A stretch of 64,000 nt of DNA from Candidatus Nomurabacteria bacterium (GTDB lineage: Bacteria; Patescibacteriota; Minisyncoccia; Phycocordibacterales; UBA9973), in the NCBI GenBank assembly GCA_016699365.1, contig CP064973.1:639916-703915 (forward strand), given 5' to 3'. Below the pieces are notes generated by a model. The model ran no database searches. It saw nothing but the letters and a program-made list of their open reading frames with translations, and was not told the origin of the DNA. Numbering within the stretch: position 1 is the first letter of the stretch; each line of letters opens with the position of its first letter. This document shows positions 4,836-64,000 of the stretch, one piece after another. Position numbers and translations under genes: made by a program.

Positions 4836-4867
4836 CCTTTTAATATATACGTTTTGGATAAAAAAAT

Positions 4868-4889
4868 AAACCCCTCAATTGAGGGGTTT
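4868..4889 (-). terminator. intrinsic terminator (AAACCCCTC-AATT-GAGGGGTTT, T-rich on minus strand)
   Basis: Perfect palindromic GC stem immediately 3' of the prs stop. Confidence 0.6.
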
Positions 4890-4897
4890 AAAGTACA

Positions 4898-5881
4898 TTA
4901 GAAATCTTCTACTAGACCATTAACGGATTCTCCAGTATGAATACGATATATAATATCGGCAAGTCTTGGAGCAACAGAAAGTATTTTCAAACCTGGAAAC
5001 ATTTTTTCTTTTGGAATAGGAATGGTGTCCGTAATGATTACTTCTTTAAAATCTTGATCTGCTAATTTGTCTAAGCCACCATCAGATCCTATCATGTGTG
5101 TAATAGCGAGAATTACGCTTTTAGCACCTTTTTCCATAAGAGATTTTTTGGCGGTGAAAATGGTATTACCAGTGTCGAAAATATCGTCGATCAATATCAC
5201 ATCGCATCCTTCGACATCTCCAATCAACGTCATCTCGCCAACAATATTTGTACCAGGACGATCTTTATCGTAAATTACTCTCGATAAGTGATACCTGTCT
5301 GCAATTTTTCTTGTAGGCTTAGTTGACCCTAGGTCAGGACCACACAATCTATATCCGTCAGGGTTATGTCTTACATATTTTTCGACAATGTAATCCATGA
5401 TCAAAGAATTCGTGCTGATATTATCGCACGGGATATCAAAGAAACCTTGAATTGTAGGATTGTGAAGTTTTACTGTTACAAACTGATTCACTCCTGCTCT
5501 TTCTAACTGATTGGCAAGTAATCTTGCGCTGATCGGATGACGAGGCTTGTCTTTACGATCCTGACGAGTATACGGCATATGCGGCATTACCAAACATATA
5601 GAACCCGCTGACGCCAATTTCAAAGCATCAACCAGAATCAATGATTCCCAAATATGAGAATGCACATCATCCCCAAACGCTGACTGGATTATGAAAGTAT
5701 CACAGCCTCTGACTGATTCGAGAGGTCTTGTCATAATCTCGCCACACTTAAATTTGAAAAATTCCTTGTCTGTAATTTTCAAACCAAGATCATTATTATT
5801 TTTGATTATCTCAGCAATAATCTCTGTTGTCAGATCATGAGAAGTGCTCCCTGCAAAAATCTTTAATTTGCCATTTTTCAT
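4898..5881 (-). CDS. prs: ribose-phosphate pyrophosphokinase (PRPP synthetase)
   Basis: Prs N-terminus KLKIFAGSTSHDLT, PRPP-binding loop ILIDDIFDTGNT, and the flexible loop MPYTRQDRKDKPRHPISARL. The track ORF starts at GTG 5923. The ATG at 5881 (MKNGKLKIF) is the better start. Confidence 0.9.
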   Translation of the reverse strand: MKNGKLKIFAGSTSHDLTTEIIAEIIKNNNDLGLKITDKEFFKFKCGEIMTRPLESVRGCDTFIIQSAFGDDVHSHIWESLILVDALKLASAGSICLVMPHMPYTRQDRKDKPRHPISARLLANQLERAGVNQFVTVKLHNPTIQGFFDIPCDNISTNSLIMDYIVEKYVRHNPDGYRLCGPDLGSTKPTRKIADRYHLSRVIYDKDRPGTNIVGEMTLIGDVEGCDVILIDDIFDTGNTIFTAKKSLMEKGAKSVILAITHMIGSDGGLDKLADQDFKEVIITDTIPIPKEKMFPGLKILSVAPRLADIIYRIHTGESVNGLVEDF

Positions 5882-5920
5882 ATCTTTATTTTTTGTGAAA
5901 AGAACAGGTACATCATAGCA

Positions 5921-5943
5921 CACTTTACATATTTAGTAAAGTG
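5921..5943. promoter_or_regulatory. 23-bp perfect palindrome CACTTTAC-N7-GTAAAGTG overlapping the predicted prs promoter (candidate operator)
   Basis: Read directly. On the minus strand the prs promoter TTTACT-17-TgcTATGAT sits over the palindrome. The same half-site recurs at 45196-45212. Confidence 0.4.
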
Positions 5944-5983
5944 TGTTTAAAAGTAATATTTAGAAAAAACTATAAACTAGTGA

Positions 5984-6794
5984 TTATTTATGAAATCTAC
6001 CGAAAATCTTCTTTCCTGGATAAAGTGGTATAAGAGAACTTGTTACTTTTTTGTATTCATCAAACTCAGCATTACCTTTGTATCTTGCTTCTGTCATAGG
6101 AACACCGGAAACTTTCGTTATGAGATATGTGATAGTGAGCGGTCCAACTATACTCCACCAAGGAACGCCCGCAGATAGCGAAACTATCCACACTCCCCAC
6201 CACATAGTCACTTCACCGAAATAGTTCGGATGTCGAGTGAGGGACCAAAGGCCACTTTTCATAATCTTGCCTTTGTTTGCAGGATCTTTGAGAAACGTCG
6301 CAAGCTGTTTATCTCCTACTGATTCATATATGAATCCAATCACCCATATTCCCAAGGCCAACTATGTCCAAAACTGTCGGAAACATATTGCCTGCATTTT
6401 TCGACACAAGCATCACTGGTATAGATATGAGAAGTAGTAAAAAACCTTGAAGCAAGAATACTTGTAAGTAACTTCGTAAATAAAACCACTTTCCCCAATC
6501 CATTCTCCATTTTGCGTAACGAGGATCTTCGGCTTTGTTTTTGTTACGAGCATATATATGAGTAGCGAGCCTCATACCCCAGATGAAAACTAATAAAGCC
6601 AAAAATACACTTCGGATATCTAAAGAGCCGCTAATTATATATCCATAAAAAACAGAAACTACAGCAACTATTATAAAACCGAGCCCCCAACCTATGTCTG
6701 CAATATCATTGCGCTTGTTTATGATAGCGGCAACATACAAAAGAGACATGTAAACAAATATGAGTAATGAACAAATTATGAAAATGTTTTGCAT
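5984..6794 (-). pseudogene. DUF1295 family membrane protein (RHPNYFGE motif; steroid-5alpha-reductase/ICMT-like) disrupted by a +/-1 frameshift near 6340-6352
   Basis: Two overlapping minus-strand ORFs (6324-6794 and 5984-6361) in different frames together make one ~270-aa DUF1295-like protein. The junction reads ...TVLDIVGL | ALGIWVIGF... Confidence 0.55.
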
Positions 6795-6962
6795 AAACCA
6801 ATTTTAACAAAAATAGTCCCAAACAGCTATTTCATACTTTGTACTTTCGGGTTCCCGTTTTGAGGTTTGAAGTTTCTGAACTATGAATACATAATAGTAC
6901 TTTTATTTTACTGGCATTTACAATATTAACGATCCGTAGTATAAATACAAAAATTATTTAAT

Positions 6963-7544
6963 ATGCTAAGAAACATAATCAACCTGGTTCTGAAGATTTT
7001 AGGACTTGGTCTTATTCGCAAAACGTATTACAAAGCTTTTGAACCGAACAACATAAGTTTGGAATACCGCATTATTGCCTACAAATCTGGAAATAAAGAG
7101 AGATTCGTTATAGAAAAACGTAAAGTGACCGACATTATCTGGACACCACTCTTGAAAGATTGTTTGGATGTATATACAAAACGTTGGGAAATGAATGATT
7201 ACGGATATGCTTGGAAGGAAAACAAGTATACATACAGAGATAGGCATGGCCGTGGCTTCGCAATCGTCAAAAGTAATGGTAATTGTGAGACTTATGAGCA
7301 AGCTCTTGAGTTTATTTCTTACCAACCCGGACAAGTACATATGCAAAATGAAGATGGTGAGTCTGTAATCCAATTGTGGGCAAACAACCAAATCGCTAGA
7401 AATTTTGTAGGTGATACTCGCGTCGAAAAACATGTATCACGTATTGGAATATTTTATTCAAATAAAGATACATTTTTTGAAAGTAACGGACCCTATTGGG
7501 AAGAATATTTTGAGAGAGTGTATAATCACAAAAAAATTGCTTAA
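6963..7544 (+). CDS. hypothetical protein (193 aa)
   Basis: Intact ORF with its own terminator. No recognisable motifs. Confidence 0.45.
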   Translation: MLRNIINLVLKILGLGLIRKTYYKAFEPNNISLEYRIIAYKSGNKERFVIEKRKVTDIIWTPLLKDCLDVYTKRWEMNDYGYAWKENKYTYRDRHGRGFAIVKSNGNCETYEQALEFISYQPGQVHMQNEDGESVIQLWANNQIARNFVGDTRVEKHVSRIGIFYSNKDTFFESNGPYWEEYFERVYNHKKIA

Positions 7545-15779: not shown

Positions 15780-15855
15780 TATTTATTTGAATAGTTTAAT
15801 TTTTTGTTTTTTATTACTGTCATTGTGATCACAGATAATTTACTCGTCACCACTC

Positions 15856-15935
15856 GTAAATTTCTGCGATCCCGCCTCCTCGACCCCGTCGGGTCTGCGG
15901 CTCTCACAATGTGCCCCACACATTGTGAGCGTGGA
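15856..15935 (-). other. GC-rich structured trailer 3' of tRNA-Ile (11-bp stem CTCACAATGTG/CACATTGTGAG, GNRA-like hairpin GACCC-GACG-GGGTC, AATTTAC/GTAAATT stem)
   Basis: Read directly. A local GC spike in an AT-rich genome. The first stem shares nucleotides with the tRNA 3' acceptor strand. Confidence 0.35.
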
Positions 15936-15997
15936 TGGAATCGGACCATCGACCTCTGTCTTATCAGGACAGCGTTCTACCACTGAACTACACGCTC
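15926..15997 (-). tRNA. tRNA-Ile (anticodon GAU), 72 nt, CCA not encoded
   Basis: Manual fold of the minus strand. The acceptor stem GAGCGTG/CACGCTC is perfect. D-arm is GTTC-AGTGGTA-GAAC. Anticodon arm is CTGTC-CTGATAA-GACAG. T-arm is GATGG-TCCGATT-CCATC, with an atypical C at position 55. Discriminator is A. Confidence 0.8.
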
Positions 15998-43860: not shown

Positions 43861-44541
43861 ATGAAATTCGATACATCAAAACTTCTAAATCCGTGGGTAT
43901 CTGTAGACGTAGTTGTCTTCACTTTGGAAAACAACGAACTCAAAGTACTTCTTACAAAACGCGCTAGTGATCCATTTATGGGATCATGGGCTCTTCCTGG
44001 TGGATTCCTGTTAAAAGGAGAAACTACAGAAATTGCTGCACGTCGAGTACTCAAGCAAAAAGCTGGGGTTAGTAGTGATGTATATTTAGAACAACTTTAT
44101 ACTTTTGATACACCGGGACGCGATCCGCGCGCTCCGGTGTTTTCTATTACTTATTTTGCTCTTGTGCCTATCGAAGATATCAAATTTGCAAAAACAGACA
44201 AAACTGAGAGCCCAGAATTCATATCTATAAACCATCTACCTCGCTTAGCTTTTGATCATAAAGATATTGTGAATTACTCAATTAAACGTCTGCAAGCAAA
44301 GATTCAATACACGAACGCTGCATATTCTATACTTCCAAAACTTTTTACTTTCTCTCAATTACAAAAAGTTTATGAAGCGATACTAGAACGCGCTATAGAC
44401 AAAAGAAACTTCCGTAAAAAATTCATGCAACTTGGTCTGATCAAAGAAACCAAGAAAATGCTTCGCGGCGGCAAGCAGCGTCCTGCAAAACTATATGAAT
44501 TTATCTCACACAAACCAGCTGAGCTAAAAAAGTTTTTCTAG
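43861..44541 (+). CDS. nrtR: Nudix-related transcriptional regulator NrtR (degenerate Nudix box + C-terminal winged helix)
   Basis: Nudix fold with non-catalytic box GGFLLKGETTEIAARRVLKQKAGV (REUxEE replaced by RVLKQK). The C-terminal FTFSQLQKVYEAILERAIDKRNFRKKFMQLGLIKET...RPAKLYEF matches the NrtR DNA-binding domain pattern (memory). Embedded in NAD genes. Confidence 0.7.
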   Translation: MKFDTSKLLNPWVSVDVVVFTLENNELKVLLTKRASDPFMGSWALPGGFLLKGETTEIAARRVLKQKAGVSSDVYLEQLYTFDTPGRDPRAPVFSITYFALVPIEDIKFAKTDKTESPEFISINHLPRLAFDHKDIVNYSIKRLQAKIQYTNAAYSILPKLFTFSQLQKVYEAILERAIDKRNFRKKFMQLGLIKETKKMLRGGKQRPAKLYEFISHKPAELKKFF

Positions 44542-45107
44542 GAATATAAATTTTTACTAACTATATACTCATAGACACCGTCGGCAATACTGTCAGGTTT
44601 TTCTCCTTTTTTAATTTTTTCACGTATCAGGGTTGCAGACATCGAACCGACAGGTTCTATCTCGGTACAAGAAATCTTAGCTAGAATTTCCCCATCTATA
44701 TTTCCATCACGTCCGACAACATAAAAGTGGTGCGAAAGTATCTCATCTGCAAATTCCCAAGTTGGAATAGAATTTACAACATCGGTACCTGTAATAATCG
44801 AGAACTTGTGATCAGAGTATTTTTTATGAAGATGCCTGAGTGTTTGAAATGTATATGACGGGGTCGGCAAATCAAATTCAACCCTAGACACAAATACGCT
44901 ATCTAGGTCATTTACCGCAAGCTCTACCATCTGTGCACGATCTTCACTAGGAGCAAGCGAGTTTGCGGGTTTGTCTGGATTTATTGGAGACACAACAACC
45001 CAGATTTCATCTGGAGAATTTTCATGATTTCTGACCTTTTGAATTACTTTTTTATGGTCGTCATGAATCGGGTTAAAAGATCCAAAGTATAGAGCTATGT
45101 GTTTCAT
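44538..45107 (-). CDS. nadD: nicotinate-nucleotide adenylyltransferase
   Basis: GSFNPIHDDH (GxFxPxHxxH), 189 aa. Confidence 0.8.
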   Translation of the reverse strand: MKHIALYFGSFNPIHDDHKKVIQKVRNHENSPDEIWVVVSPINPDKPANSLAPSEDRAQMVELAVNDLDSVFVSRVEFDLPTPSYTFQTLRHLHKKYSDHKFSIITGTDVVNSIPTWEFADEILSHHFYVVGRDGNIDGEILAKISCTEIEPVGSMSATLIREKIKKGEKPDSIADGVYEYIVSKNLYS

Positions 45108-45195
45108 ATGGTGGATTATATCAAAATTTATAAAGCTTTCTCTTTGACAAAATGACCTAAATATGATAGAATACTGTTAGATATGTGCACTTGTT

Positions 45196-45212
45196 GCACT
45201 TTTAAAAAGTGC
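45196..45212. promoter_or_regulatory. 17-bp perfect palindrome GCACTTTT-A-AAAAGTGC in nadD/pncA divergent region
   Basis: Read directly. Shares the CACTTT/AAAGTG half-sites with the prs-upstream palindrome. Confidence 0.4.
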
Positions 45213-45217
45213 ATGAT

Positions 45218-45238
45218 ATAGTGTATATAATACATTAA
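45218..45238. promoter_or_regulatory. candidate NrtR operator B: ATAGTGTATATAATACATTAA (GT-N7-AC core)
   Basis: Read directly. 21 bp upstream of the pncA ATG, and downstream of the predicted pncA promoter TTGACA(45144)-17-TAGAAT. Confidence 0.45.
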
Positions 45239-45258
45239 GTAAATTAAAAAACAAATAT

Positions 45259-45861
45259 ATGAAAGAAGCTAAAAAAGCACTCTTAATCATAGATGTGCAA
45301 AACGATTTTTGTCCTGGAGGCTCACTTGCTGTCACTGATGGTGATCGTGTGGTAGAACCATTGAACAACATGATCAAGCTTGCCCGCGAAAACGGCTGGC
45401 TTGTCATCGCCTCTCGTGACTGGCACCCAAAAGATACTGCCCACTTCAAAGAATTCGGCGGTATCTGGCCCGCACATTGTATCGAAGGTACTGGTGGAGC
45501 AAAGTTCAAACATGGACTTCTTTTTCCAGAAAAAACAGTAATCATCAATAAAGGTACTTCTAAAAAAGATGATGGTTACTCCCCTTTTGAAGGAACCGAT
45601 ACTGTACTTGATTTACCCCTTGCTCAAATTTTAAACATCAAGGGTATTACCGATATATTTATCGGAGGCCTTGCAACAGACTATTGCGTAAAAGCAGGAG
45701 TTCTGGATGCATTAAAAAATGGTTATGGTGTGTATCTTTTAGAAGATGCCATCAAAGCCGTAAATCTTAAACCCGATGATGGCGCAAATGCAATTGCAGA
45801 AATGCAAAATGCCGGTGCAATCATCACAACAACAACGGAGGTAATCAATGAAAAACGATAA
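45259..45861 (+). CDS. pncA: nicotinamidase / isochorismatase-family hydrolase
   Basis: LLIIDVQNDFCPGGSL, catalytic Cys in GGLATDYCV. Confidence 0.85.
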   Translation: MKEAKKALLIIDVQNDFCPGGSLAVTDGDRVVEPLNNMIKLARENGWLVIASRDWHPKDTAHFKEFGGIWPAHCIEGTGGAKFKHGLLFPEKTVIINKGTSKKDDGYSPFEGTDTVLDLPLAQILNIKGITDIFIGGLATDYCVKAGVLDALKNGYGVYLLEDAIKAVNLKPDDGANAIAEMQNAGAIITTTTEVINEKR

Positions 45862-47141
45862 CTTTAATTTCCATCGTCTCGATGAAGAGACTATGGAAGG
45901 CAATATTGTTGAGTCAGTACTCGACGATGACTTCTACAAATTCTCGATGGGCCAGTTTATCTGGGATCATCCTGAATTGAAAGAAACAGAAGTTGAGTGG
46001 CACTTCAACAATCGGACAAAATCGATACAGCTGGGCAATATTATTTCCGAAAAAGATTTCTTTGATCAAATCGAAGGGATTAAAAATTTCGGGATCGATA
46101 GTTCAGGGTTTCGTTTCTTGCGAGGGCTTGAAATCTACGGAGACAAAATGTTTTCCGATGATTATCTAAATTTCCTCAAAGGAATTAAATTCCCGGAAAT
46201 TAGTTTCGGAAGAACCGATGAAGGCCAGCTTGATATAAAGTGGAAAGATACATGGAACACTTCTATGCATGCAGAAATGCCAATACTACGTATTGTTAGT
46301 GGTCTGTATGTTCGAGCTCAACTCAAAAACAAGAGCAAGCTCGAACGCGAAGCATTCTATGCCGAAGGAATCAAAAGACTTGCGCTAAAAGTAGCAAGGT
46401 TGAAAGAACACAAAAATGTTGTGTTCTCAGATTTTGCAAACCGCAGAACACCTTCGCCAATACTTCATGAATACATGGTAGTAAGAGCCGCTGAAGAACT
46501 CGGCAAACAGTTCAAAGGAACTTCCAAAACGAGTCTTGCGATGAAGCACGGACTTGACCCTATTGGAACTTGGGGCCCATGAGCTTGCAATGATTATCAC
46601 AGCACTTCGTTTTGATGGCAGCCGCCAATCAATCGAGCAAGCTCAGATAGAGTTGCATACAAAATGGCTCAACCAGTTCGGTGAGGGTATCGCCCTGTCA
46701 CTGCCAGACACATACGGCACACAGTTCACACTGGATACACTGCCAGATGAAATCGTGAGCAAACTAAAAGGTTTCAGGATTGATTCTGAAGATCCGTTTG
46801 TATCGATCCCGAGATTTCAAGAGAGATTCGTCAGAGCCGGTATCGATTACAAAAACAAATTATTCGTGCCGAGTGATGAACTCAATCTCGACAAGATGAT
46901 CGCCATCAGTGATGCGTTCGGCGCATCGAGTATGATTAGTCACGGCTGGGGTGGAGGATTTGGAAACGACTTTGGTTTCAATAAAGTTTCAATTATCTGT
47001 AAACCATATTCGGCAAATGGAAAGTTTTGCGTAAAACTCTCCGACAATGTCGAAAAGGCAATCGGTGAATACGGAACTGTTAAAAAATACAAAGAAGCGC
47101 TCAACTACAAAGGCGAGTATGCAAAAGTTTGTATTTCATAA
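45848..47141 (+). pseudogene. pncB: nicotinate phosphoribosyltransferase with +1 frameshift in G4 run (46572-46575)
   Basis: ORF 45848-46582 (DFYKFSM at the N-terminus) and ORF 46554-47141 (FRIDSEDP, GWGGGF) are consecutive PncB segments. Removing one G restores ...DPIGTWAHELAMI, matching the PncB GTxAHSW motif. Confidence 0.65.
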
Positions 47142-47147
47142 GTTCAC

Positions 47148-47172
47148 AAAGGCGGGAAAATTCCCGCCTTTT
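47148..47172 (+). terminator. intrinsic terminator (AAAGGCGGGAA-AA-TTCCCGCCTTTT)
   Basis: After the pncB stop. Confidence 0.6.
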
Positions 47173-47196
47173 ATTATTAATGTATAATCAATCTAT

Positions 47197-48039
47197 ATGA
47201 CACACAAATTCGATAGAGTAGCTATTTTCTACAGACCCGACATCTCTGGCGGCAGCACATGGGAGAAGAAAATCATATCAAAACTAAAATCTTTAAATAA
47301 AAAAATTGAAATCGGGTCTAAGCGTCCGAAGGTGGTTATTGCTCTAGGTGGAGATGGAACAATCATGGAAGCCATCCGCAATTTTAAACACTTCTCCCCT
47401 CTTTTTATAGGACTGAACTTGGGCCACGTCGGATTCCTCGCGACTATTCGCGAGAAGAAAAATTTTCTAAAAGGCATCGAAAAAATATACAAAGGTGAAT
47501 ATACAGTTTCAGAGCGAATGATGCTCCACGTCGGAGTCGTACGTAAAGGCAAAGAGATCTACGAGACCCAAGCTCTCGGCGATATGTATATTCAAAACCT
47601 CACAGGACTTCTCGATCTCGATATCCATATCGATGAGCATCTAGTTCAGCGTGTTCATGGAACAGGTGCTATAGCAAGCACCGCGAGTGGTTCTACGGCC
47701 TACAACTTGTCACTACATGGTCCGATAGTTATGCCAGATATAAACTGTATCGTAGTGAACGAAATCCTCGATCACAACACTCCGACACCTTCTATGATTA
47801 TCAAGAAAACTAAACGTGTTTCTTTCCATATTAAAAATTTCCGCCGACGCAACGAAGTACTGCTCGCAAAAGATGGCCTAGATATTGACGTAGGTATGTG
47901 GACCGATGGAGTGCTCGTCATGCGCCTGCTTCCAGGCGACATAGTCCATGTAGCGCGCGCTCGCGGGAAAATAAAACTCGCCGAGATAGAAAAAGATTAT
48001 TTCTTCAAAAGTATCCAACAAAAATTCACATTCAAATAG
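47197..48039 (+). CDS. nadK: NAD kinase
   Basis: VIALGGDGTIMEA (GGDG), NE/D motif region, 280 aa. Confidence 0.85.
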   Translation: MTHKFDRVAIFYRPDISGGSTWEKKIISKLKSLNKKIEIGSKRPKVVIALGGDGTIMEAIRNFKHFSPLFIGLNLGHVGFLATIREKKNFLKGIEKIYKGEYTVSERMMLHVGVVRKGKEIYETQALGDMYIQNLTGLLDLDIHIDEHLVQRVHGTGAIASTASGSTAYNLSLHGPIVMPDINCIVVNEILDHNTPTPSMIIKKTKRVSFHIKNFRRRNEVLLAKDGLDIDVGMWTDGVLVMRLLPGDIVHVARARGKIKLAEIEKDYFFKSIQQKFTFK

Positions 48040-50535: not shown

Positions 50536-50653
50536 TAATATTTTTAGAGAAAAGTTTCTCCAATTTGTCTCCAACTTTCAAATCGGTGAGGTATGTCAGT
50601 TATTGACTTATTTGAAATAATGTTATACAATACTAATATAAAAAGTACAAATA

Positions 50654-50998: not shown

Positions 50999-51155
50999 AA
51001 ATACAATAACTAAACTTCTTAAAGCATCATTTTTAAAGTGATGCTTTTTTATTTGATTTGCGTCACGAATACTAAGTCTACTAGTATTACTTCGAAACAC
51101 TGGACGGATTAAGTACTTGCTTGTGATCCACAATAATTTGTTCGCCATCGCTCTA

Positions 51156-51220
51156 TGTGGTCACGAATCACTAAGTATTTTATTTCGATTACTCATAAAA
51201 TACAAAGTGTTCGCGACCCC
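51156..51220. repeat. 65-bp direct repeat copy 1 (internally an imperfect hairpin GTCACGAA...GTATTTTAT-N11-ATAAAATAC...TTCGCGAC)
   Basis: Identical to 51304-51368. A degenerate third copy lies at ~51062-51105. Confidence 0.7.
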
Positions 51221-51303
51221 ACCTCGCCTGTCGCAGGGCGACATGACTGCGGCTTCACCGCGTAGCAAAAAATCCCAAGCAGTTGGGATTTTTCTGTTGT
51301 GCT

Positions 51304-51368
51304 TGTGGTCACGAATCACTAAGTATTTTATTTCGATTACTCATAAAATACAAAGTGTTCGCGACCCC
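51304..51368. repeat. 65-bp direct repeat copy 2
   Basis: Perfect identity with copy 1, 148-bp period. Confidence 0.7.
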
Positions 51369-51410
51369 GGCTCGTGGTTTTGTGTGCTCACAAAACATCA
51401 CTGCGCCCGT

Positions 51411-51458
51411 CACACATAACAAAAAGACTGGAGCAGTCCAGTCTTTTTGTTATGTGTG
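51411..51458. terminator. exceptionally long hairpin (22-bp perfect stem CACACATAACAAAAAGACTGGA/TCCAGTCTTTTTGTTATGTGTG, loop GCAG)
   Basis: Read directly. T-rich on both flanks. Confidence 0.5.
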
Positions 51459-51502
51459 AGCCTAATCGAGATGCGACCCAAAGATTCATTGCCCTGTAAG
51501 GA

Positions 51503-51697
51503 TTATTTTAACCTTTCCTTGGCGTCAGATCGACCCTTCTCGAGAGTAGCTTTCTTTGTATACAAATGAGGGTTTTGCTTCCTATCTTGATCTAGTAACC
51601 ATCGAAATACTGCGACCACTCTATCACTTTCTTCTTTAGTCCAATTTTTAGGATTTCTTTTATCTTCTTGGTTCATAAAAAGTGACAAAAGTGACAC
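51503..51697 (-). CDS. hypothetical protein (64 aa)
   Basis: ORF track. Last gene of the minus-strand operon. Confidence 0.3.
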   Translation of the reverse strand: MSLLSLFMNQEDKRNPKNWTKEESDRVVAVFRWLLDQDRKQNPHLYTKKATLEKGRSDAKERLK

Positions 51698-51740
51698 AGG
51701 TTCGACTATAAAAGTTACAGATTACTGTAACTTTTATAGT

Positions 51741-52283
51741 CTACAAACCCCAAGAATCATGAGCTTCTTTTGTGTAATGATTTAAAGTTGTTTTTGGGTG
51801 ATTATTCATATCAAATTGAGAGATTGCATCTGCTATCGGTTCCTTTTTAAAAGGGATATGAATAATTCCAACCTGCCTGTTGCTTATTGCTTTAGATAAT
51901 TCAGCAGGCCATAGATGCGAAAGAGCTGATGGATCCATAATTCTGTTGTATCCAGTGTAAGTAACTATAATTGGGATTTTGCAAGTTTCGACAGCGTACT
52001 TAATTTCAAAAGGAACCCAGTCAGTATCCAGTTTTGTAGTTTGACCAATAATCAAAAGTAAATGTTTTGAATTATTCATTCTTGCTATCAATGCTCGACG
52101 TAGAGTTTCCTTTCTACTTGAATCTCTAACAGCTCCTGTCTTTTCATGACTATTAGCAAAGCTAAAGTCATCATCTCTTACTCTCCAACCTTTCAGTAAA
52201 CTGTAGTACTTCATATCTGAAGCGGTTGGGTTTGTTTCTCCGTCTGCATGAAAAGCTATGTATGTTCCACTTCTGTATGCCAT
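51741..52283 (-). CDS. TIR-like domain protein (ThsB-like, DUF1863-type), paralogue 1
   Basis: YIAFHADGE..., ...SKHLLLIIGQTTKLDTDWVPFEIKYAVETCKIPIIV matches the ThsB pattern (memory of B. cereus ThsB). Confidence 0.65.
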   Translation of the reverse strand: MAYRSGTYIAFHADGETNPTASDMKYYSLLKGWRVRDDDFSFANSHEKTGAVRDSSRKETLRRALIARMNNSKHLLLIIGQTTKLDTDWVPFEIKYAVETCKIPIIVTYTGYNRIMDPSALSHLWPAELSKAISNRQVGIIHIPFKKEPIADAISQFDMNNHPKTTLNHYTKEAHDSWGL

Positions 52284-52286
52284 AAA

Positions 52287-53129
52287 TTAATTATGTAAAG
52301 ACTTTAAAAAATCTTGAATTTCTAATAAATTAACCTTTTCTTTATCTTCTTCTCGTATTATCAAAACCAGTTCCTTTGAAATTGTCTCAACTCTTGAGTT
52401 AATGATAAATGACAAAAGAATTAGATTGATTGGTAGCTTAAATGAAATACCAGGAACTCTTGCTAGGTTTGTACCCATAACAGGCATAACGATAGTTTTT
52501 TGCTCTCCTTCAATTCTGATCTTAGTCCAAAGGTTTTGAAGCGATACCCATAGGCTATTTATATCCGAGGTGGCTTTTAGATCAGATCCCATTCGGCTAT
52601 AAGCACAGCAAAAAAACTTCCTATTCGGTGTTGAGAGTGCTACTACTGTGCCAATTTTATATCTCTTATTTTTACCTCGAGTTTTCTCTGTGTCTTCTTC
52701 TGATTCTTCATTTTGTAATAATGTATCAAGATCAGTATCAAGTTTGTTTTGATTATTTTCATACATTGAAACTAAAAACTGACCTTGCATACTATCCTTA
52801 CTTACAACATCACCTATCTCTGTATCAAAAGTATCACTGAACCCAATCACAAGATGTCCAGATTGGTCGAATATATTACCAACCTTTATACCGATTTTTA
52901 CATCAGGATTTGAAAATGATTCAGAAAAACTAGTTTGTGGCCATGCTCTAAAGAGAGCAATAATCGCAGATATAATGATCACTGAAACCCACCCTTTCCA
53001 TCCATAACTAGGAAGATTTGTATAACTAAAAGTAACTACCTGAATGATCCCACTAATCACACCAACTGACACAAGAAAGTTCGTACCAAATTTACGAAAC
53101 ATTCTTCTTGAAAGAATAGAATTTATCAT
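52287..53129 (-). CDS. 2TM + Macro-domain protein (ThsA-like effector of type II Thoeris)
   Basis: Two N-terminal TM helices. The C-terminal motif order fits a Macro fold (IGIKVGNIF...HLVIGFSDTF...GDVV; KIGTVVALSTPN...KFFCCAY; TIVMPVMGTNLARVP). Confidence 0.55.
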   Translation of the reverse strand: MINSILSRRMFRKFGTNFLVSVGVISGIIQVVTFSYTNLPSYGWKGWVSVIIISAIIALFRAWPQTSFSESFSNPDVKIGIKVGNIFDQSGHLVIGFSDTFDTEIGDVVSKDSMQGQFLVSMYENNQNKLDTDLDTLLQNEESEEDTEKTRGKNKRYKIGTVVALSTPNRKFFCCAYSRMGSDLKATSDINSLWVSLQNLWTKIRIEGEQKTIVMPVMGTNLARVPGISFKLPINLILLSFIINSRVETISKELVLIIREEDKEKVNLLEIQDFLKSLHN

Positions 53130-53638
53130 AAGCCGAGTTGTTGATACACAGAATCAGTATATGTATATCGATGATCTTGATAATCTATATGATTCTTCCA
53201 TTTATGATAATTATCTGGAAAATGATCTAAGGCATACTGAATCGCCTTTAATTTAAAAGGTACTGAAATAGTATATTTCCAGTCTTTAATGGCAGAAGGA
53301 CAAAGGTTATCATCGTAACCTTTTTTATTATTTAAATTAACAATTACTATCGGTATGTCTTTTTTTCTTGCCAACTCAATTTCCCATGGTAAAAATTTTC
53401 TCAGATACTTAGTATTATCTCCGACCAATAAAAGCATTTGTTTAGAGTTTGCCATTCGTACTCTAAGTTGAGCTTTTATTGATTCTTCGGTGCTTGTATC
53501 CCTCGCACTATTTAGGTCATGAGCATTTAAAAAATCAAATTCAATATGATCATGTTCTTTCCATGCAGTCATTAAGCGATAATATTTCATATTGTTATCT
53601 CCATCGAAAGCAACATAAGTTTTATTCTTGTAGGACAT
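53126..53638 (-). CDS. TIR-like domain protein (ThsB-like), paralogue 2
   Basis: YVAFDGDNN..., ...SKQMLLLVGDNTKYLRKFLPWEIELARKKDIPIVIV. Confidence 0.65.
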   Translation of the reverse strand: MSYKNKTYVAFDGDNNMKYYRLMTAWKEHDHIEFDFLNAHDLNSARDTSTEESIKAQLRVRMANSKQMLLLVGDNTKYLRKFLPWEIELARKKDIPIVIVNLNNKKGYDDNLCPSAIKDWKYTISVPFKLKAIQYALDHFPDNYHKWKNHIDYQDHRYTYTDSVYQQLGL

Positions 53639-58425: not shown

Positions 58426-59706
58426 ATGACAGAAGTCGAACAAAGCCAGATGAAATATTGCTTGTACGCTCGTAAATCAACCGAAGCAGAAGAAAAGCAA
58501 GCCCTTTCTATTGATTCCCAAATCAAGGAAATGAAGCAGATTGCCGAGCGAGAAAATCTAACCATAGTTGAGATCCGTAAGGAATCTCACTCTGCAAAAG
58601 AATCTGGACAAAGACCAGTATTTGAGGAGATCGTAAAAGATATTGATACGGGGATATTCAACGGAATCATTACATGGGCACCTGATAGATTATCTCGTAA
58701 TGCAGGTGATCTTGGAAAACTTGTAGATAGAATGGATCAAAGGAAACTGATTCAGATCAAAACTTTTGGTCAGACTTTTTCCAATTCACCAAGTGATAAG
58801 TTCTTGTTGATGATCCTTTGTAGTCAGGCAAAACTCGAAAATGATAACAAGAGTATTAATGTAAAGCGTGGTATGAGAGCTAGATGTGAAATGGGTTTAT
58901 GGCCAGTACAACCACCAACAGGATACAGAAAGCCTAATCAACGACTAGCTAAGTGTGAGGTAGAAATCGATCCAGAACGATCTGATACCATACGACAAAT
59001 ATTCGAGAAGATTAGTTATGAAAAATGGAGCGTATCGAAAGTACACGCATGGCTACGATACGATCTTGATTTCAAAACCCATAGAGGTTTTCATCTAAGT
59101 TTAGGAAATGTATTCAAAATTATAAATAATACTTTCTACTATGGTCGCTTTGAGTTCCCACAAGGATCAGGTGTTTGGTATGAGGGAAAGCATAAACCCA
59201 TTATCACTAAAGAGTTGTTTGATGAGACCAGAAATTCTATCAAGTCGCAGACGATAAAATCACAAGGTAAGGAGTTCGCCTTTACGCGAATTATGAAATG
59301 TGGAGCTTGCGGATCAGGTATTACTGCCGATGAAAAATTCAAGAAGTTATTGAATGGTGGAGTTAACCGACATGTATATTATCGATGCACAAAAGCCAAA
59401 GACAGGAATTGTAAAAATCCTGCATTAAACGAAACTGAGCTTATCGAATCACTACTCGATATGGTTGATACCTTGAACATAAACAAGGTAAAACTCACCG
59501 CAAAGCTTGATATTGAAATTCAAAAGTTTAAGAAATTGCAGGCAATGTTCTTAGGAAAGAAAAAGACAGAAAAAATAGAACCGATTGATCTCAAGGACTA
59601 CACAAAATTTGTACTAAAAGAGGGATCTCCACTAGAGCAGAGATCCATCTTGGAATGTATCAGTAGTGAGTTGGTTTTGAAGAATAAAATAATAAAAATT
59701 ACTTAA
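58426..59706 (+). CDS. large serine recombinase (integrase)
   Basis: N-terminal catalytic YARKSTEAEEKQ...SIDSQ, recombinase domain, zinc-ribbon CGACGSG...YYRCTKAKDRNC, C-terminal coiled coil. Confidence 0.8.
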   Translation: MTEVEQSQMKYCLYARKSTEAEEKQALSIDSQIKEMKQIAERENLTIVEIRKESHSAKESGQRPVFEEIVKDIDTGIFNGIITWAPDRLSRNAGDLGKLVDRMDQRKLIQIKTFGQTFSNSPSDKFLLMILCSQAKLENDNKSINVKRGMRARCEMGLWPVQPPTGYRKPNQRLAKCEVEIDPERSDTIRQIFEKISYEKWSVSKVHAWLRYDLDFKTHRGFHLSLGNVFKIINNTFYYGRFEFPQGSGVWYEGKHKPIITKELFDETRNSIKSQTIKSQGKEFAFTRIMKCGACGSGITADEKFKKLLNGGVNRHVYYRCTKAKDRNCKNPALNETELIESLLDMVDTLNINKVKLTAKLDIEIQKFKKLQAMFLGKKKTEKIEPIDLKDYTKFVLKEGSPLEQRSILECISSELVLKNKIIKIT

Positions 59707-60847
59707 TCTTAATTATTGATTCAGTTGTTTTATCGTAAGTGTAGTTAACAATCTCTCCCTTTATTATTAGTTCAATCACATTTCCGATCACCATAATTGG
59801 TGCAATAAACCACTCTTTCGGAGTGTAGTTTTTTCCATTGTTGTCAGTGATTTCAATATCTAGACAGGAATCACTAAAGAAGCGATGTATCAATCGTTCA
59901 AATCTTTGAGGATTCATATTGAAACATCTATAGGTCGCAACAATAGACACTGGAGCCATGAGATAAGTTGGATCTTGCTGTGCGTTTTTTATACGATCTT
60001 CAACACTCGTAGTCGAGAACCCAATCTTGAAAAGATTTTTTGTACTAGAAATTCTAGGATTATCACTTAATGACTTAAGTACATAGATATAGCCAGTTTC
60101 TGAATCTCCGTCTTCAACGCTTGCAATATCTTGATTATCTTTTACGGCATAGCCCGCGTCAGACAATCTCTTTCCTAATGATCGCAAAAGCACACTTGAT
60201 TCAGTACCGTTTTCGTAAATACAACGAGTTCGTCGGTTTATCTTTTGACTGTTTCCTCGATATGGATCATAGATCTTTTCTAGATATATTAAGACACCAC
60301 TAAGAACAAAGAAGTCTCCTTGCTTCATCTCGCTTTCAACGAAAGTGGCAAGTTTTTTAGTACCATTTTTTAAATCTCTCTGAGTCTGTGCAAATAAATG
60401 CTCATACTGGTCAAAATCAGCACAAATCTCTCTTTGAGCCACGAAGTCAGGATCAGAACGATCTTGTCGTATCTCTGGAACATTCTTTATGTTAAAAACA
60501 GAACTATCTTCAATAGAAAGTAAGTCCAGATCATCATCTTCAAAAATATCACTTACTGTATCAATATCTTTTTTCTCAATCTTTAAAAGACCATGAGTAT
60601 CATACTTACTTAGGAAGTCTCGTTGCTCTTTATTTTCTCTGATGTGCTTAAGGCGTGATGCGAGTTTGTGTTCATGAATATCTCCGCCACTTTTAGGTTC
60701 AGCATTATGTACTGCAAAGAACTCATTTATTTCCATAAATGATTCTGTTAAACGATCATCAGGCGTAGCAGAAACAGCTTTCTTGTCTATGTCGAGAAGA
60801 CCTAAGTCATCATCATTTATTAAATCTAGTAAATCGTTTTTATCCAT
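59699..60847 (-). CDS. T5orf172/GIY-YIG-like nuclease domain protein with acidic repeat N-terminus
   Basis: C-terminal GYIYVLKSLSDN...KIGFSTTSVEDRIKN. N-terminal repeated DDDLxLL(D/S)I(D/E) motifs. Confidence 0.5.
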   Translation of the reverse strand: MDKNDLLDLINDDDLGLLDIDKKAVSATPDDRLTESFMEINEFFAVHNAEPKSGGDIHEHKLASRLKHIRENKEQRDFLSKYDTHGLLKIEKKDIDTVSDIFEDDDLDLLSIEDSSVFNIKNVPEIRQDRSDPDFVAQREICADFDQYEHLFAQTQRDLKNGTKKLATFVESEMKQGDFFVLSGVLIYLEKIYDPYRGNSQKINRRTRCIYENGTESSVLLRSLGKRLSDAGYAVKDNQDIASVEDGDSETGYIYVLKSLSDNPRISSTKNLFKIGFSTTSVEDRIKNAQQDPTYLMAPVSIVATYRCFNMNPQRFERLIHRFFSDSCLDIEITDNNGKNYTPKEWFIAPIMVIGNVIELIIKGEIVNYTYDKTTESIIKIK

Positions 60848-60848
60848 A

Positions 60849-62786
60849 TTAATTTTGAATTTGTTCAGCCTTGAGCTTCTTCAAGTACAGTACCGCTTCC
60901 GCCAAACGCTTCTCAAGGGGGTCAGACGAAGATATGTCTGGCTTTCGACCTGTTTGTATTGTGAACTCCTTAGCTTTAGGCCATAGGATCTTAACTTCTT
61001 CTGGTGTCATCTCGATTCGAGATGAATCAATTGTATCTTGAATAACCTTAAGGATACTTGAAGTCACTGATTTTGAGAGAATCTCAAAAGCTTCTTGGAA
61101 CGGATTGATACTGTCGATAAGGTCAATATTTAGATCATCAATATTCACAAACTGACCTGCCATACGAACAAATTTCTTATCACCAACTTCTTTGATTTCT
61201 CCGTTCTTGATTACAGAATCAACAACAACGTGTTGACGAACTTCCTCTACTTCAAGATCTGTTAGATCAGGGTATTTCATTTGAATAATCTTTGGGATCA
61301 TTACTTTGTTGATTACCTCGGGATCAACATTTCCAGGCAACGCTTTAATCATTTGATCATCTTGAAGAATTGAAGCTTTGAGGTCGTTGATATCAGATTC
61401 AATAATCTCTCGCACACGATCAGTACTTGGTGCTTTAAAACCCTTTATTTTTATTTCACCTGGAGTAAAGGTAGTGTCATCATTTGGGAATCGTGGTTTG
61501 AAGTTATAGTGCGGAGCCATGACTTGTTCCATAAGCAAAGAACAAGTGATCGCCTTGAGCATGTTGTTTACTGACACTTTAACCTCGCCGTCTTTTGCAT
61601 CAGGCTGAGCAATAAGATTAGTAAATTGTGCATGAGTTTTGTTTGCACTGTCACGAGTACAGCGACCGATAATCTGAATGATCTCCGTGAGAGAGCTTCG
61701 GTAGCCCACAGTCAAAGCATGTTCACAGTATGGCCAGTCAAATCCTTCCTTTGCCATACCAAGAGCAATAATGATATCCATGTCATCCTCCTTTTTCATT
61801 GTGCGGAGGTAGTTTGAAATCTTATCTCGATCAACTGAATCATCGACAAGGTTTGCTACTTTAAGCATCTTTCCGTCACCGTCACGCTTTACATAGATAA
61901 CACCGGTCTCATGATCTTGATGATCTACTTCTCCAATAATGTCCAAGATTAGATCAACCTCGTTGAGCTTGTCTTTTGTAGATTCTCCAGAGTTTACGTT
62001 TGGAATGTGTAAAATCGTTTTCTTATTCGTATCCAAAACCTCAGCAATCGCTGATGTGTATTTACCTTGATAAAAGTGATATCCAATACCCAAGGTTTTT
62101 AAATAGGTATAACCGTTCAATTGCTGATAGTAGTTGTATGTCACTTTCTGGAACTTTGCCTCATCTTGTGGCAACAGAACTGCAACACCATCGCCTCGAA
62201 AATATGATCCAGTCATCGCAATGATATGAGCATTCGAGTTCGTCATTATTCCATGCAGAACTCGTCCCAAAATACTGCTTTCCTTGTCGGCAGACACATG
62301 ATGAAATTCATCGATCGCAATGAGAATGTCATTAAATTTTGCATCTTCAATTTGCTCACATGCAAAACGAAGAGTGGCATGAGTACAGATAAGAATCTTC
62401 TCATCGTTATCCATAAAATTCTTGAATGCCTCAACCTTTCCTTTGGCATTATCAAGACCTGGGGTACAAAGGTTATAGTTATCATTTGGTTTCCAGTCTG
62501 CGAAAAATCCATTATCAGTTAGATTGGTTTCGCTAAATGATCCACCAATTGATTTTTCAGGAACGGCGACAATCACTTTTTTGATACCTTGATTAGTCAG
62601 CTTATCTAGAGCAAGGAACATCAAAGCACGAGATTTTCCCGATGCTGGAGGAGCTTTCAAAAGTAGGTATTGAGCTGTTCTTTTCTCAAATGCTTTTGCC
62701 TGCATTTCACGCATACCAAAATTATTGATTTTGGTACTTTCTCCTGTTTGGGCATATGTTGCTTCTGCAACTTGAATGGTTTTCAT
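60849..62786 (-). CDS. SF2 DExH helicase (ResIII-like N-terminus + Helicase_C)
   Basis: Motif I APPASGKS, motif II IDEFHH, motif VI IIQIIGRCTR. ~200-aa uncharacterised C-terminus. Confidence 0.7.
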   Translation of the reverse strand: MKTIQVAEATYAQTGESTKINNFGMREMQAKAFEKRTAQYLLLKAPPASGKSRALMFLALDKLTNQGIKKVIVAVPEKSIGGSFSETNLTDNGFFADWKPNDNYNLCTPGLDNAKGKVEAFKNFMDNDEKILICTHATLRFACEQIEDAKFNDILIAIDEFHHVSADKESSILGRVLHGIMTNSNAHIIAMTGSYFRGDGVAVLLPQDEAKFQKVTYNYYQQLNGYTYLKTLGIGYHFYQGKYTSAIAEVLDTNKKTILHIPNVNSGESTKDKLNEVDLILDIIGEVDHQDHETGVIYVKRDGDGKMLKVANLVDDSVDRDKISNYLRTMKKEDDMDIIIALGMAKEGFDWPYCEHALTVGYRSSLTEIIQIIGRCTRDSANKTHAQFTNLIAQPDAKDGEVKVSVNNMLKAITCSLLMEQVMAPHYNFKPRFPNDDTTFTPGEIKIKGFKAPSTDRVREIIESDINDLKASILQDDQMIKALPGNVDPEVINKVMIPKIIQMKYPDLTDLEVEEVRQHVVVDSVIKNGEIKEVGDKKFVRMAGQFVNIDDLNIDLIDSINPFQEAFEILSKSVTSSILKVIQDTIDSSRIEMTPEEVKILWPKAKEFTIQTGRKPDISSSDPLEKRLAEAVLYLKKLKAEQIQN

Positions 62787-62790
62787 AAAA

Positions 62791-64000
62791 TTATTTGTTA
62801 GTTTTTCTAGTAATCATCTCTTCATAAAGTTTGAACAAGTGAGCTAGTCGATCCTCGTCACCTTCAAACGGTTTGCTTCGGTATATCTGATCTATTGCTT
62901 GATCTAAATATTTGTGAGCTTCTCGCAATCCGTCAGGCATTTTATTTGGATCATATAATTCAGCTATTGTTTTGTCTGGATATCTTTCTCGCTCGCTGAG
63001 AATATTATATGCATGGGTACTAAGTGCTTCTTTTTGTTTTTCTGTAATAGCAGGAAAAGGAAACGTATTGTACGACAACGCAGTCAGGTATCGAATACTT
63101 TCTCCTAATTTTCCCGAGGTCAACCTTACCCACAGTAGATGCATTTTTGAACTTATTACTGAAAATATGTAGGTTGGCGGATCATAAATAACTGCTGCCG
63201 AACTCAAAACTATTACATCTTTTGATGAAAAACCTATTGGCATGTATTCTCTTCTTTCAGAAAAAACAATTGGAATAATTATTAAAGAATTTTTTGCAGT
63301 ATGAGTATATCTAAATTGATGTGGTCTCTTAACAAGACCTCTTGCCACATCGCCACCGTTCATTCTAAATTCTCTAACTCGATTAATTCTTTCTGCAATT
63401 TCAGGTATTCGCTCTGCATCCTTACGGTCCTCATCATTAATCCATAGACACCACCTATCAATATGGTTAATGAATTCATCTGATCCAATTGCTCTTCTCA
63501 GAAACTTTCTTGCATCTGGGTATTGATTTTGGAGCTTATTCTTTTCTGTTGTATTTAATGTTAAATTTCCAGCTTCATAAGGACTATTACCAGTAATCAT
63601 GACTGGGAAGTTAGAAATTGGTTTTAAAGATTTAGAAATATAAAAATCATCACCATTAACTAAGTAACCGTTTATATTTTTTACTTCCAATTTAATATTT
63701 CCTGTATAAAGATATTTTTTACCCTTAGATCTATTCCTTATGCCAATGATAGAACAAGTAACACCTGCTTTATTCTTTGCATTATTACTCCATGTAAAGG
63801 GCTTGTATGCAAAAAAGATTTCTTTGTTTAAAATAGAGATTTTAGGCCACATCTGTTCGACCTGAGATCCTTCACATAACGAACTCGTAGTAACAAAAGC
63901 AAACTTACAACTGTCTGTTATGTACAAGGCCGCTTTTATAAACCAACAAGCAACATAGTCCAATTCTTTATAATTACCGATTTTGTCAAAACAAATACCC
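62791..64000 (-). CDS. gamma-class N6-adenine DNA methyltransferase, C-terminal part with TaqI-like target-recognition domain (5' end beyond window)
   Basis: The frame continues upstream of the track's TTG start (..GICFDKIGNYKELDYVACWFIKAALYI..KFAFVTTSS). This matches the post-NPPY helix/strand of TaqI-type MTases. The C-terminal ...RLAHLFKLYEEM tail is as in MmeI-like enzymes (memory). Confidence 0.55.
   Translation of the reverse strand, partial: GICFDKIGNYKELDYVACWFIKAALYITDSCKFAFVTTSSLCEGSQVEQMWPKISILNKEIFFAYKPFTWSNNAKNKAGVTCSIIGIRNRSKGKKYLYTGNIKLEVKNINGYLVNGDDFYISKSLKPISNFPVMITGNSPYEAGNLTLNTTEKNKLQNQYPDARKFLRRAIGSDEFINHIDRWCLWINDEDRKDAERIPEIAERINRVREFRMNGGDVARGLVKRPHQFRYTHTAKNSLIIIPIVFSERREYMPIGFSSKDVIVLSSAAVIYDPPTYIFSVISSKMHLLWVRLTSGKLGESIRYLTALSYNTFPFPAITEKQKEALSTHAYNILSERERYPDKTIAELYDPNKMPDGLREAHKYLDQAIDQIYRSKPFEGDEDRLAHLFKLYEEMITRKTNK

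Follow-up and report, generated by a model that had tools for sequence, protein, structure and literature searches.

Bacteria of the candidate phyla radiation (CPR, Patescibacteria) have very small genomes in which few repeats or mobile elements have been recognised. The described systems closest to the element reported here are integron attC sites, each a single bulged hairpin of 57-141 nt with an R''/R' consensus (RYYYAAC/GTTRRRY), in cassettes beside intI/attI; the islands and prophages that tyrosine integrases place in genes for transfer RNA (tRNA) and transfer-messenger RNA (tmRNA), for which the T-loop and the 3' end are reportedly two of three known sublocations in tRNA genes, as Williams is said to have described in 2002; the repetitive extragenic palindromic (REP) sequences, made of palindromic units of 20-40 nt with a conserved GTAG head and mobilised by a RAYT gene of the genome; and the palindrome-associated transposable elements (PATE) derived from IS200/IS605, which insert 3' of a tetranucleotide without duplication and have subterminal hairpins at both ends. 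Here we describe a repeat array in a 64,000-nt stretch of the genome of a Candidatus Nomurabacteria bacterium (contig CP064973.1, positions 639,916 to 703,915; hereafter the window, numbered from its first letter) that shares features with each of these systems. The two direct repeats of the array are shown to be the long hairpins, termed P4, of two adjacent members, accompanied by a decayed remnant, of a large family of structured non-coding units of about 100-130 nt. Units of this family stand immediately 3' of tRNA and tmRNA genes, in one orientation and often in tandem. A structured element at the tRNA and tmRNA 3' flanks of CPR bacteria has apparently not been described so far, and full-text literature searches returned no description of a structured repeat at tRNA flanks.

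The repeat array and its fold

The 65-nt direct repeat occurs at 51156-51220 (copy 1) and at 51304-51368 (copy 2) with 100% identity and a period of 148 nt, as the initial annotation of this stretch had stated, and identity is 97% across 71 nt when 51156-51226 is compared with 51304-51374. A 60-nt core of the repeat has exactly two occurrences in the window, with none expected by chance. Both copies fold as imperfect long hairpins, again as annotated, and each consists of the P4 module of a unit plus flanking bases, recorded without a strand. Unit 1 (51150-51297, minus strand) scores 78.4 bits with R1 and 86.3 bits with R2, the two covariance models built from 18 and 83 copies of the family, respectively. 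It comprises a distal arm (~51150-51158), P4 (51159-51218), P2 (51221-51223 with 51251-51253, with A·C at one position), P3 (~51225-51246), an inverted arm (51254-51266, TCACCGCG) whose match to a tRNA-Glu end is found only in the related contig L001, and a GCAG-loop hairpin (51267-51293, AAAAAATCCCAAGCAGTTGGGATTTTT) that also resembles a bidirectional terminator. Unit 2 (51298-51455, minus strand, 158 nt) scores 94 bits with R1 and 106.6 bits with R2 and comprises a distal arm (51294-51306), P4 (51307-51366), P2 (51369-51371 with 51405-51407, where G51369, G51370 and C51371 pair with G51405, C51406 and C51407), P3 (51374-51401) and, at 51410-51459, a 23-bp perfect hairpin formed by the inverted arm, the GCAG-loop hairpin and the proximal arm, the two arms pairing perfectly. 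Both units match the two models across the full model length. The smaller structures that the annotation had placed downstream of each copy are all present, namely the GC-rich mini-hairpins after copy 1 together with AAAAAATCCCAAGCAGTTGGGATTTTT, and after copy 2 the GTGGTTTTGTGTG/CACAAAACATCAC stem, which is P3 of unit 2, and the perfect-stem hairpin.

The degenerate third copy annotated at 51061 is real and corresponds to unit 0 (51061-51149, minus strand), which shares the P4 arm GTCACGAAT-ACTAAGT exactly (a 16-nt match at 51062), retains a short hairpin, has the same orientation, adjoins the array and is present in L001 too. Neither R1 nor R2 detects it, and since its score falls below the family model threshold we regard it as a decayed remnant, here the most tRNA-distal unit. 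The perfect identity of copies 1 and 2 fits the recent duplication or concerted evolution put forward in the annotation, but it is limited to P4, the most conserved module of the family, while P3, the arms and the hairpins of the two units differ, which points to strong sequence constraint or to gene conversion within P4 rather than to copying of the unit as a whole. Elsewhere in the window the family has a diverged member, at 15818-15914 (minus strand; R1 37.2 bits, E 2.5e-8; R2 49.1 bits), 11 nt from the 3' end of tRNA-Ile (15925-15997, minus strand), the sole tRNA gene of the window. Its arms read CATTGTG, CACAATG and CATTGTG, and its P4 carries compensatory changes while retaining the A·C/G·U position described below. 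Between 51000 and 51500 no promoter-like site was found on either strand, and the only open reading frames (ORFs) in this interval overlap one another; none of those with 20 aa or more, which cross the repeats in several frames, is gene-like. A coding role, for instance as a small toxin, was rejected on this ground and because the substitutions are compensatory base-pair changes.

By RNAalifold and pair counting the unit is a three-way junction, in which, as read in the window, a target-derived arm is followed by P4, P2, P3, the same arm in inverted copy and frequently a GCAG-loop hairpin. P1 is the closing helix, formed from the two flanks; P4 is the long imperfect hairpin seen as the 65-nt repeat in the window, with the consensus GGTCACGAAUCACUAAGUAUUUU...AAAAUACWAAGUGUUCKCGACC; and P2 is a 3-bp GNC/GNC helix with a covarying middle pair, enclosing P3, a variable hairpin. 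Paired cells amount to 93.7% across 83 copies, with double-sided changes in 27 of 32 pairs and 399 compensatory cells. No shuffle attained the observed values of pairing and covariation, and slid controls reached at most 52%. P4 covaries too in diverged members, including the tRNA-Ile unit. An extended fold, a "mini-tRNA" with a full acceptor stem, was rejected, acceptor pairing beyond P1 being 6.47/8 as against 6.35/8 for shuffled partners. The P4 loop tolerates insertions: a rare one of about 55 nt is common to L048:259-437 (tRNA-Glu, a Yonathbacteria metagenome-assembled genome, MAG) and L060:2240-2417 (tmRNA, another such MAG), and in L015 a different one occupies this position.

The two strands of the units differ in folding. 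The tRNA-sense strand is the more stable in 81/83 units, by a mean of 8.3 kcal/mol; in the window it folds at -62.7 kcal/mol (z -6.8) for unit 1 and at -81.3 kcal/mol (z -11.5) for unit 2, for which a fold with DNA parameters is equally exceptional. At the base of P4, an A·C mismatch on the strand read in the initial annotation is G·U on the tRNA-sense strand in 80/83 units. No such signal emerges from wobble counts in the modelled pairs (39 G·U versus 37 A·C); the strand signal derives from this unmodelled position and from the folding energies. The predicted functional single strand is the minus strand of the window, that is the tRNA-sense strand, on which the hairpins precede the units. A GCAG-loop hairpin follows 24/80 units as read in the window, against a background rate of 0.4%, and a loop in the opposite orientation (CTGC) follows none; the two "terminators" annotated in the window are such hairpins. 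The proposal that the repeats are tandem small-RNA genes ending in terminators thus meets two objections, the lack of a promoter-like site and the best-folding strand, which is opposite to the one assumed and places the "terminators" ahead of the units.

To the left of the array lie the adenylosuccinate synthetase gene and a 114-aa ORF with its terminator, and to the right an island begins (51456 to at least 59706, no strand assigned; genes from Pfam, left boundary from L004) that is not a member of the repeat family. Two contigs encoding exactly the same proteins as the window, L001 and L004, were compared with it by BLAST. L001 carries the 114-aa gene, the remnant and unit 1 (98% identical in the core) with its hairpin, followed directly by tRNA-Glu on the other strand; a second unit and the island are both missing. 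In L004 the island, with an identical end sequence, stands beside the terminator of an unrelated gene, and the repeats are absent. Because homology to L001 ends at window position 51297 and homology to L004 at 51456, unit 2 (51298-51455) is a separate insertion of 158 nt, lodged between unit 1 and the island. It is absent from L001 and L004 and identical in L012, a Ca. Paceibacterota MAG that, apart from one divergent stretch, is ~96-97% identical to the window along much of its length. The comparison also shows that the units are not part of the island, so that the "element edge" of the annotation holds as geography and not as membership.

We accordingly give next to no credence to readings that tie the units to the island, whether as packaging (pac/cos) signals for the nearby terminase (TerS/TerL), as origin or iterons of the island, or as its attachment (att) repeats. 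Proximity is all that speaks for them, the island beginning 0-4 nt past the unit 2 hairpin and terminase-like genes lying 5 kb off. They are ruled out by unit 1 without the island in L001 and the island without units in L004; besides, the window has no further copy near the right part of the island, where the annotation had suggested looking for one, the family adjoins tRNAs in dozens of genomes without a nearby terminase, and two good copies spaced 148 nt apart are unlike iterons, three or more short repeats that stand beside a replication gene and would travel with the island. The annotated suggestion of recombination-site-associated repeats was close in spirit, although not in the sense of att repeats of the island.

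Distribution, target-derived arms and turnover

A seed of 21 specified bases from the hairpin was searched for exactly in one-genome-per-species data and in metagenomes. It was found at 61 places in species genomes, 60 of them in CPR/Patescibacteria MAGs and often several per genome, the lineages being Saccharibacteria, Paceibacterota and Yonath-, Kaiser-, Campbell-, Nomura- and Lloydbacteria, and in 56 metagenome stretches. In 520 kb the covariance models located about 90 units, and another 330 kb yielded 71; many of these are diverged copies lacking the seed. Among the genomes and metagenomes searched with the exact seed, the family is thereby shown to be almost confined to CPR/Patescibacteria. 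The repeat is thus widespread in CPR genomes and independent of the island, an outcome that the initial annotation had itself named as refuting its reading. A metagenome scan specific to this locus gave 0 matches. At the gathering threshold of Rfam 15 the window matched tRNA-Ile only, the repeat region, at E values up to 10, gave only chance hairpin matches outside P4, and 18 loci with units gave only tRNA and tmRNA. The Rfam scan proposed in the annotation thus returned no family match, and assignment to a known RNA family (small RNA, riboswitch, ribozyme or tRNA-like) was rejected at gathering and permissive thresholds alike. A phage or plasmid origin was also rejected, with no similarity in a phage collection and 0 matches of three patterns in viral contigs.

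Most seed matches have a tRNA or tmRNA gene 120-300 nt past the seed on the opposite strand, and the metagenome set shows the same linkage. In the fetched loci a unit lies within 150 nt of the 3' end of 63 of the 112 tRNA/tmRNA genes, always on the strand opposite to the search motif, and 18 of the 20 gene kinds present carry units. In tRNA-sense order, the tRNA gene with its trailer is followed by what is often a CUGC-loop hairpin, by an inverted copy, P2/P3, P4 and a direct copy of the tRNA 3' segment. The flank that touches the GTCAC motif is an exact reverse-complement copy of about the last 19 nt of the tRNA, ending inside the T-loop (..TT|CGAAT..). The direct copy starts at about T-loop position 56 in most units and at the tRNA 3' end in a minority, and it runs 9-20 nt into the trailer in several cases, the repeat measuring 19-34 nt. 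Among 70 junctions, 49 were of the T-loop class, 13 of the 3'-end or trailer class ("..TTGTG|GTCAC") and 8 of other kinds. On its opposite side the core is flanked by the T-loop and the 3' strand of the T-stem, or by the trailer, in inverted copy. Inverted and direct copies pair as P1 and so close the three-way junction. The core of about 100 nt stays near-identical from one tRNA to another, and the arms correspond to the tRNA beside them; within the direct copy, the P1 part is kept and the acceptor part has diverged in about half of the units.

An inverted copy follows 36/51 tRNAs with a unit as against 3/41 without one, and two of the three exceptions, on examination, carry a second core family. 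The possibility that the inverted arm pre-exists at empty tRNA flanks was rejected on these counts. Simple insertion into the T-arm, in which the inverted arm would be the other half of the T-arm, was rejected because asymmetric T-loops (TTCGATT) occur in sense form in the inverted arm. The second core family is shorter and ends in ..GTCGAGAAAC|T, with instances at L043:380-750 (tRNA-Pro) and L031:6345-6720 (tRNA-Tyr). Its architecture is the same, with terminator, CUGC-loop hairpin, inverted T-arm copy, core and direct copy in that order; its junction falls at T-loop A59|T60 and its direct repeat is at least 55 nt long, entering in L043 an assembly gap of Ns.

Related strains are shown to differ in the units that they carry, which amounts to rapid turnover. 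The nearest relative of a core (85-97% identity) usually stands at a different tRNA, sometimes in the same genome. One MAG holds a pair of cores with 97% identity between GTCAC and ..GGCYTT, yet the two differ in both arms, which in each case correspond to the unit's own target. Two Yonathbacteria species have a 100% identical tRNA-Cys unit at an orthologous locus, whereas the adjacent tRNA-Leu is followed by entirely different units of a different junction class, together with a 66-nt indel. Two strains with an identically predicted tmRNA (adjacent DNA 99.5% identical) have different unit arrays. Distal copies decay, unit 0 being an example. A 66-nt module of two hairpins (..TTTCGCACAAC..GTTGTGCGAAA.. 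plus GATTTTTG..CAAAAATC) was observed inside the inverted arm of a unit of one Yonathbacteria species, at L052:6415-6480; it is absent in the relative L069, a similar module occurs at L066:3190-3260, and it may be a further small insertion element.

Candidate origins of the units

On balance, we lean towards the view that the units are non-autonomous site-specific insertion elements that target tRNA and tmRNA 3' ends and act as a folded single strand. Their landing site would be the 3' end of a tRNA or tmRNA gene, and insertion would duplicate the 3' segment, so that the gene stays intact. A trans-acting enzyme encoded elsewhere would recognise the unit as a folded single strand of tRNA-sense polarity, either as a read-through RNA or, provided that tRNA genes run in the direction of replication, as the lagging-strand template, and P1 would restore the target half-site as a duplex abutting the conserved P4 helix. 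Several points weigh against such an element. To our knowledge, no insertion mechanism yields both a direct and an inverted copy of the target, and the match of the inverted arm to each target is left unexplained. An all-against-all BLAST of 117 loci for filled and empty sites returned array differences only and no clean pair, no circular or excised form was seen, no copy occurred in viral contigs, and no transposase or recombinase lies inside the units or consistently beside them. The two units of the window have the minority 3'-end type of arm ("..TTGTG|GTCAC", 13/70), and after unit 2 there is no tRNA up to position 64000, the island following instead; tRNA-Glu was not found in the window. 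Finally, near-identical cores at different tRNAs could stem from gene conversion and not from transposition, and strong covariation and strand bias fit a functional RNA equally well.

That last possibility is the main rival. Under it the units would be structured non-coding RNA genes in tRNA sense, read through from the tRNA or tmRNA and possibly processed via a tRNA-like 3' end and P1, with a cellular function tied to the neighbouring tRNA and with arrays as polycistronic transcripts. We judge this unlikely while taking it seriously, since several observations agree with it: covariation is strong in all helices, the strand that folds better in 81/83 units and bears the conserved G·U is the tRNA-sense one, the units are fixed in co-orientation with strongly transcribed genes and close to them, their 3' end copies the tRNA 3' end, and in arrays they abut helix to helix. 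Against it stand the terminator-like hairpin with a U-run that usually lies between tRNA and unit, the lack of promoter-like sites at 51000-51500, a duplicated segment that often takes in the non-tRNA trailer and even a terminator, and an acceptor part that has diverged in about half of the copies and pairs no better than chance. Units at only a fraction of tRNAs, unrelated units at orthologous tRNAs and the decay of distal copies also speak against it. A weaker rival, which we consider improbable, holds that the units are scars of integrase-mediated integration, leftover attL/attR arms of larger islands or prophages that have lost their interior, the hairpin being an arm-type protein-binding region. 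Such scars would account for a direct repeat of the tRNA 3' end that starts in the T-loop or at the 3' end, for tandem accretion, and for the two related islands, in the window and in L055, that occupy precisely the tRNA-proximal slot adjoining units. Only about 100-160 nt, though, separate the repeats, with no ORF, and the core shows conservation both of sequence and through compensatory changes in at least 60 species and 18 kinds of target gene, which is unexpected of decaying arms; furthermore, the island of the window has a serine and not a tyrosine recombinase, the island occurs without units in L004, and an inverted copy of the target has no role in classical att sites.

A more far-reaching version of the insertion-element reading is that the units belong to a novel class of mobile element, or are structured RNA or single-stranded DNA that is mobile, and that their target-derived arms set the landing site by base-pairing or copying, giving retargetable insertion specific to the tRNA T-loop. 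The three-way junction would then set the target, copied in double-stranded form, beside a conserved recognition helix, and a CPR enzyme would drive the system. We hold this extension to be doubtful, if conceivable. Were it true, the retargetable system would share its slot with exchangeable defence islands and may organise hot spots of such islands in reduced genomes. A structured element found at a quarter to a half of the tRNA/tmRNA 3' flanks sampled in these CPR lineages would count as a major feature of their genome architecture. In practical terms, the units break assemblies, as in the N-gap of L043, and can be mistaken for small-RNA genes or phage signals, and the alignments and models can be put directly to the test with RNA-seq, long-read population data and biochemistry.

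The adjoining island and likeness to known systems

The units mark a slot that is occupied by defence islands. From its left end, the island of the window encodes on the minus strand a 64-aa ORF, a ThsB-TIR protein, a ThsA-Macro protein, a second ThsB-TIR protein, a DUF2188 protein and an S24 repressor, followed by a DNA methylase, a small helix-turn-helix protein, a large terminase and a large serine recombinase, all by Pfam. The two ThsB-TIR genes and the ThsA-Macro gene between them, whose product has N-terminal hydrophobic segments, form a Thoeris set at 51741-53638 (minus strand). In L055, from another MAG, a unit is followed by a related island in the same slot, with 91% nucleotide identity in the repressor region, and there Thoeris is replaced by a cargo at 4446-7307 of UPF0489, an unknown protein, a PycTM protein (Pycsar-like) and another unknown protein. 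Repressor, methylase, terminase and serine recombinase thus seem to form a shared backbone on which the defence cargo is exchanged, and the tRNA-proximal slot beside the units appears, from these two loci, to be used by exchangeable defence islands (Thoeris in the window, Pycsar-like in L055).

The left end of the island in L004 (2445-2500) forms a tRNA-like minihelix in which UGAGCCU pairs with AGGCUCA, followed by CCA, after a T-loop-like CGAUU motif; at 51456-51510 of the window the 5' partner of this helix is mutated. The minihelix may be the island's own mimic of a tRNA end or an att site. The island end in L055 differs, yet has GCCCTGTAAGG and the double AAAAGTGAC repeat in common with it. 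In the window the tandem pair of AAAAGTGAC lies at 51678-51696 and a 17-bp perfect inverted repeat at 51704-51741, between the 64-aa ORF and ThsB; the pair of 9-mers, kept in the L055 island, may be an operator or promoter region. Past the serine recombinase, at 59699-63963 (minus strand), follow a T5orf172/MUG113-domain protein, whose gene overlaps the recombinase gene by 8 nt at its 3' end, a ResIII/DEAD helicase and a 390-aa ORF, which may be another defence module, so that the island may extend past the window. The expected tRNA and the right end of the island fall beyond the window, and exact look-ups of the serine recombinase and of the T5orf172 protein gave no match.

On the other side of the array, a 35-nt stretch upstream of the 114-aa ORF (50565-50599) is a breakpoint in three relatives: it occurs twice in L002 (1355-2100), flanking a 655-nt insert with a 207-aa gene, the homology to L001 begins there, and that to L012 (2484-3135) ends there. 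Further left, at 44538-48039, lies a cluster for NAD salvage, with a cytidylyltransferase-like (NMNAT-type) protein, an isochorismatase/nicotinamidase, a nicotinate phosphoribosyltransferase and an NAD kinase, 3-7 kb from the NAD-related Thoeris system. The nicotinate phosphoribosyltransferase is split into overlapping ORFs (45848-46582 and 46554-47141), which may reflect a frameshift.

Of the systems introduced above, attC sites in integron cassette arrays and the folded attP of CTX-type phages come close in several respects. They share with the units the order of direct core, cargo, inverted core, structure and direct core, the pairing of inverted and direct copies within one strand into a double-stranded copy of the target, structure conserved by compensatory change, preference for one strand, and tandem accumulation at one site. 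The units differ from attC in lacking the R''/R' consensus, their junction motifs being ...TTCG|GTCAC and YTT|CGAAT, in folding as a three-way junction and not as a single bulged hairpin, in a core that is highly conserved in sequence with arms that vary by target, and in landing at the T-loop or 3' end of tRNA/tmRNA genes instead of attI or dif. There is no IntI gene nearby, none of 20 neighbouring window proteins scanned has an integrase-type domain, and the units cannot be placed among attC sites. With the islands and prophages of tyrosine integrases the units share the duplicated tRNA 3' segment (a repeat of 19-34 nt), a junction at the T-loop or 3' end, tmRNA as a further target, and tandem accretion. 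They are set apart by a length of 100-160 nt with neither integrase gene nor cargo between the repeats, by the conserved folded core and the inverted copy of the target, and by the use of at least 18 target genes by a single core family.

REP sequences with the bacterial interspersed mosaic elements (BIME) and REPINs that they compose, and miniature inverted-repeat transposable elements (MITE) with PATE, are, like the units, short non-coding multi-copy extragenic hairpins, often located at gene 3' ends by terminators and presumably moved in trans. The units have no GTAG head, and their three-helix fold of more than 100 nt contrasts with the short palindromes of REP; compared with REP and MITE alike, they lack terminal inverted repeats, show a long, variable direct duplication of the target with one fixed end, and are strictly linked to tRNA/tmRNA 3' ends in strict orientation with a three-way-junction fold. 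The long direct duplication of the target also separates them from PATE. The msr-msd region of retrons is alike in topology only, with a closing a1/a2 helix (as P1), a short msr hairpin (as P2/P3) and a long imperfect msd hairpin (as P4) on one strand; the units have no adjacent reverse transcriptase gene and no evidence of multicopy single-stranded DNA, are multi-copy, and have a closing helix of tRNA sequence. Taken together, the precise T-loop junction, the arms in both orientations and the three-way junction backed by covariation suggest a mechanism outside those of known transposons, integrases and integrons.

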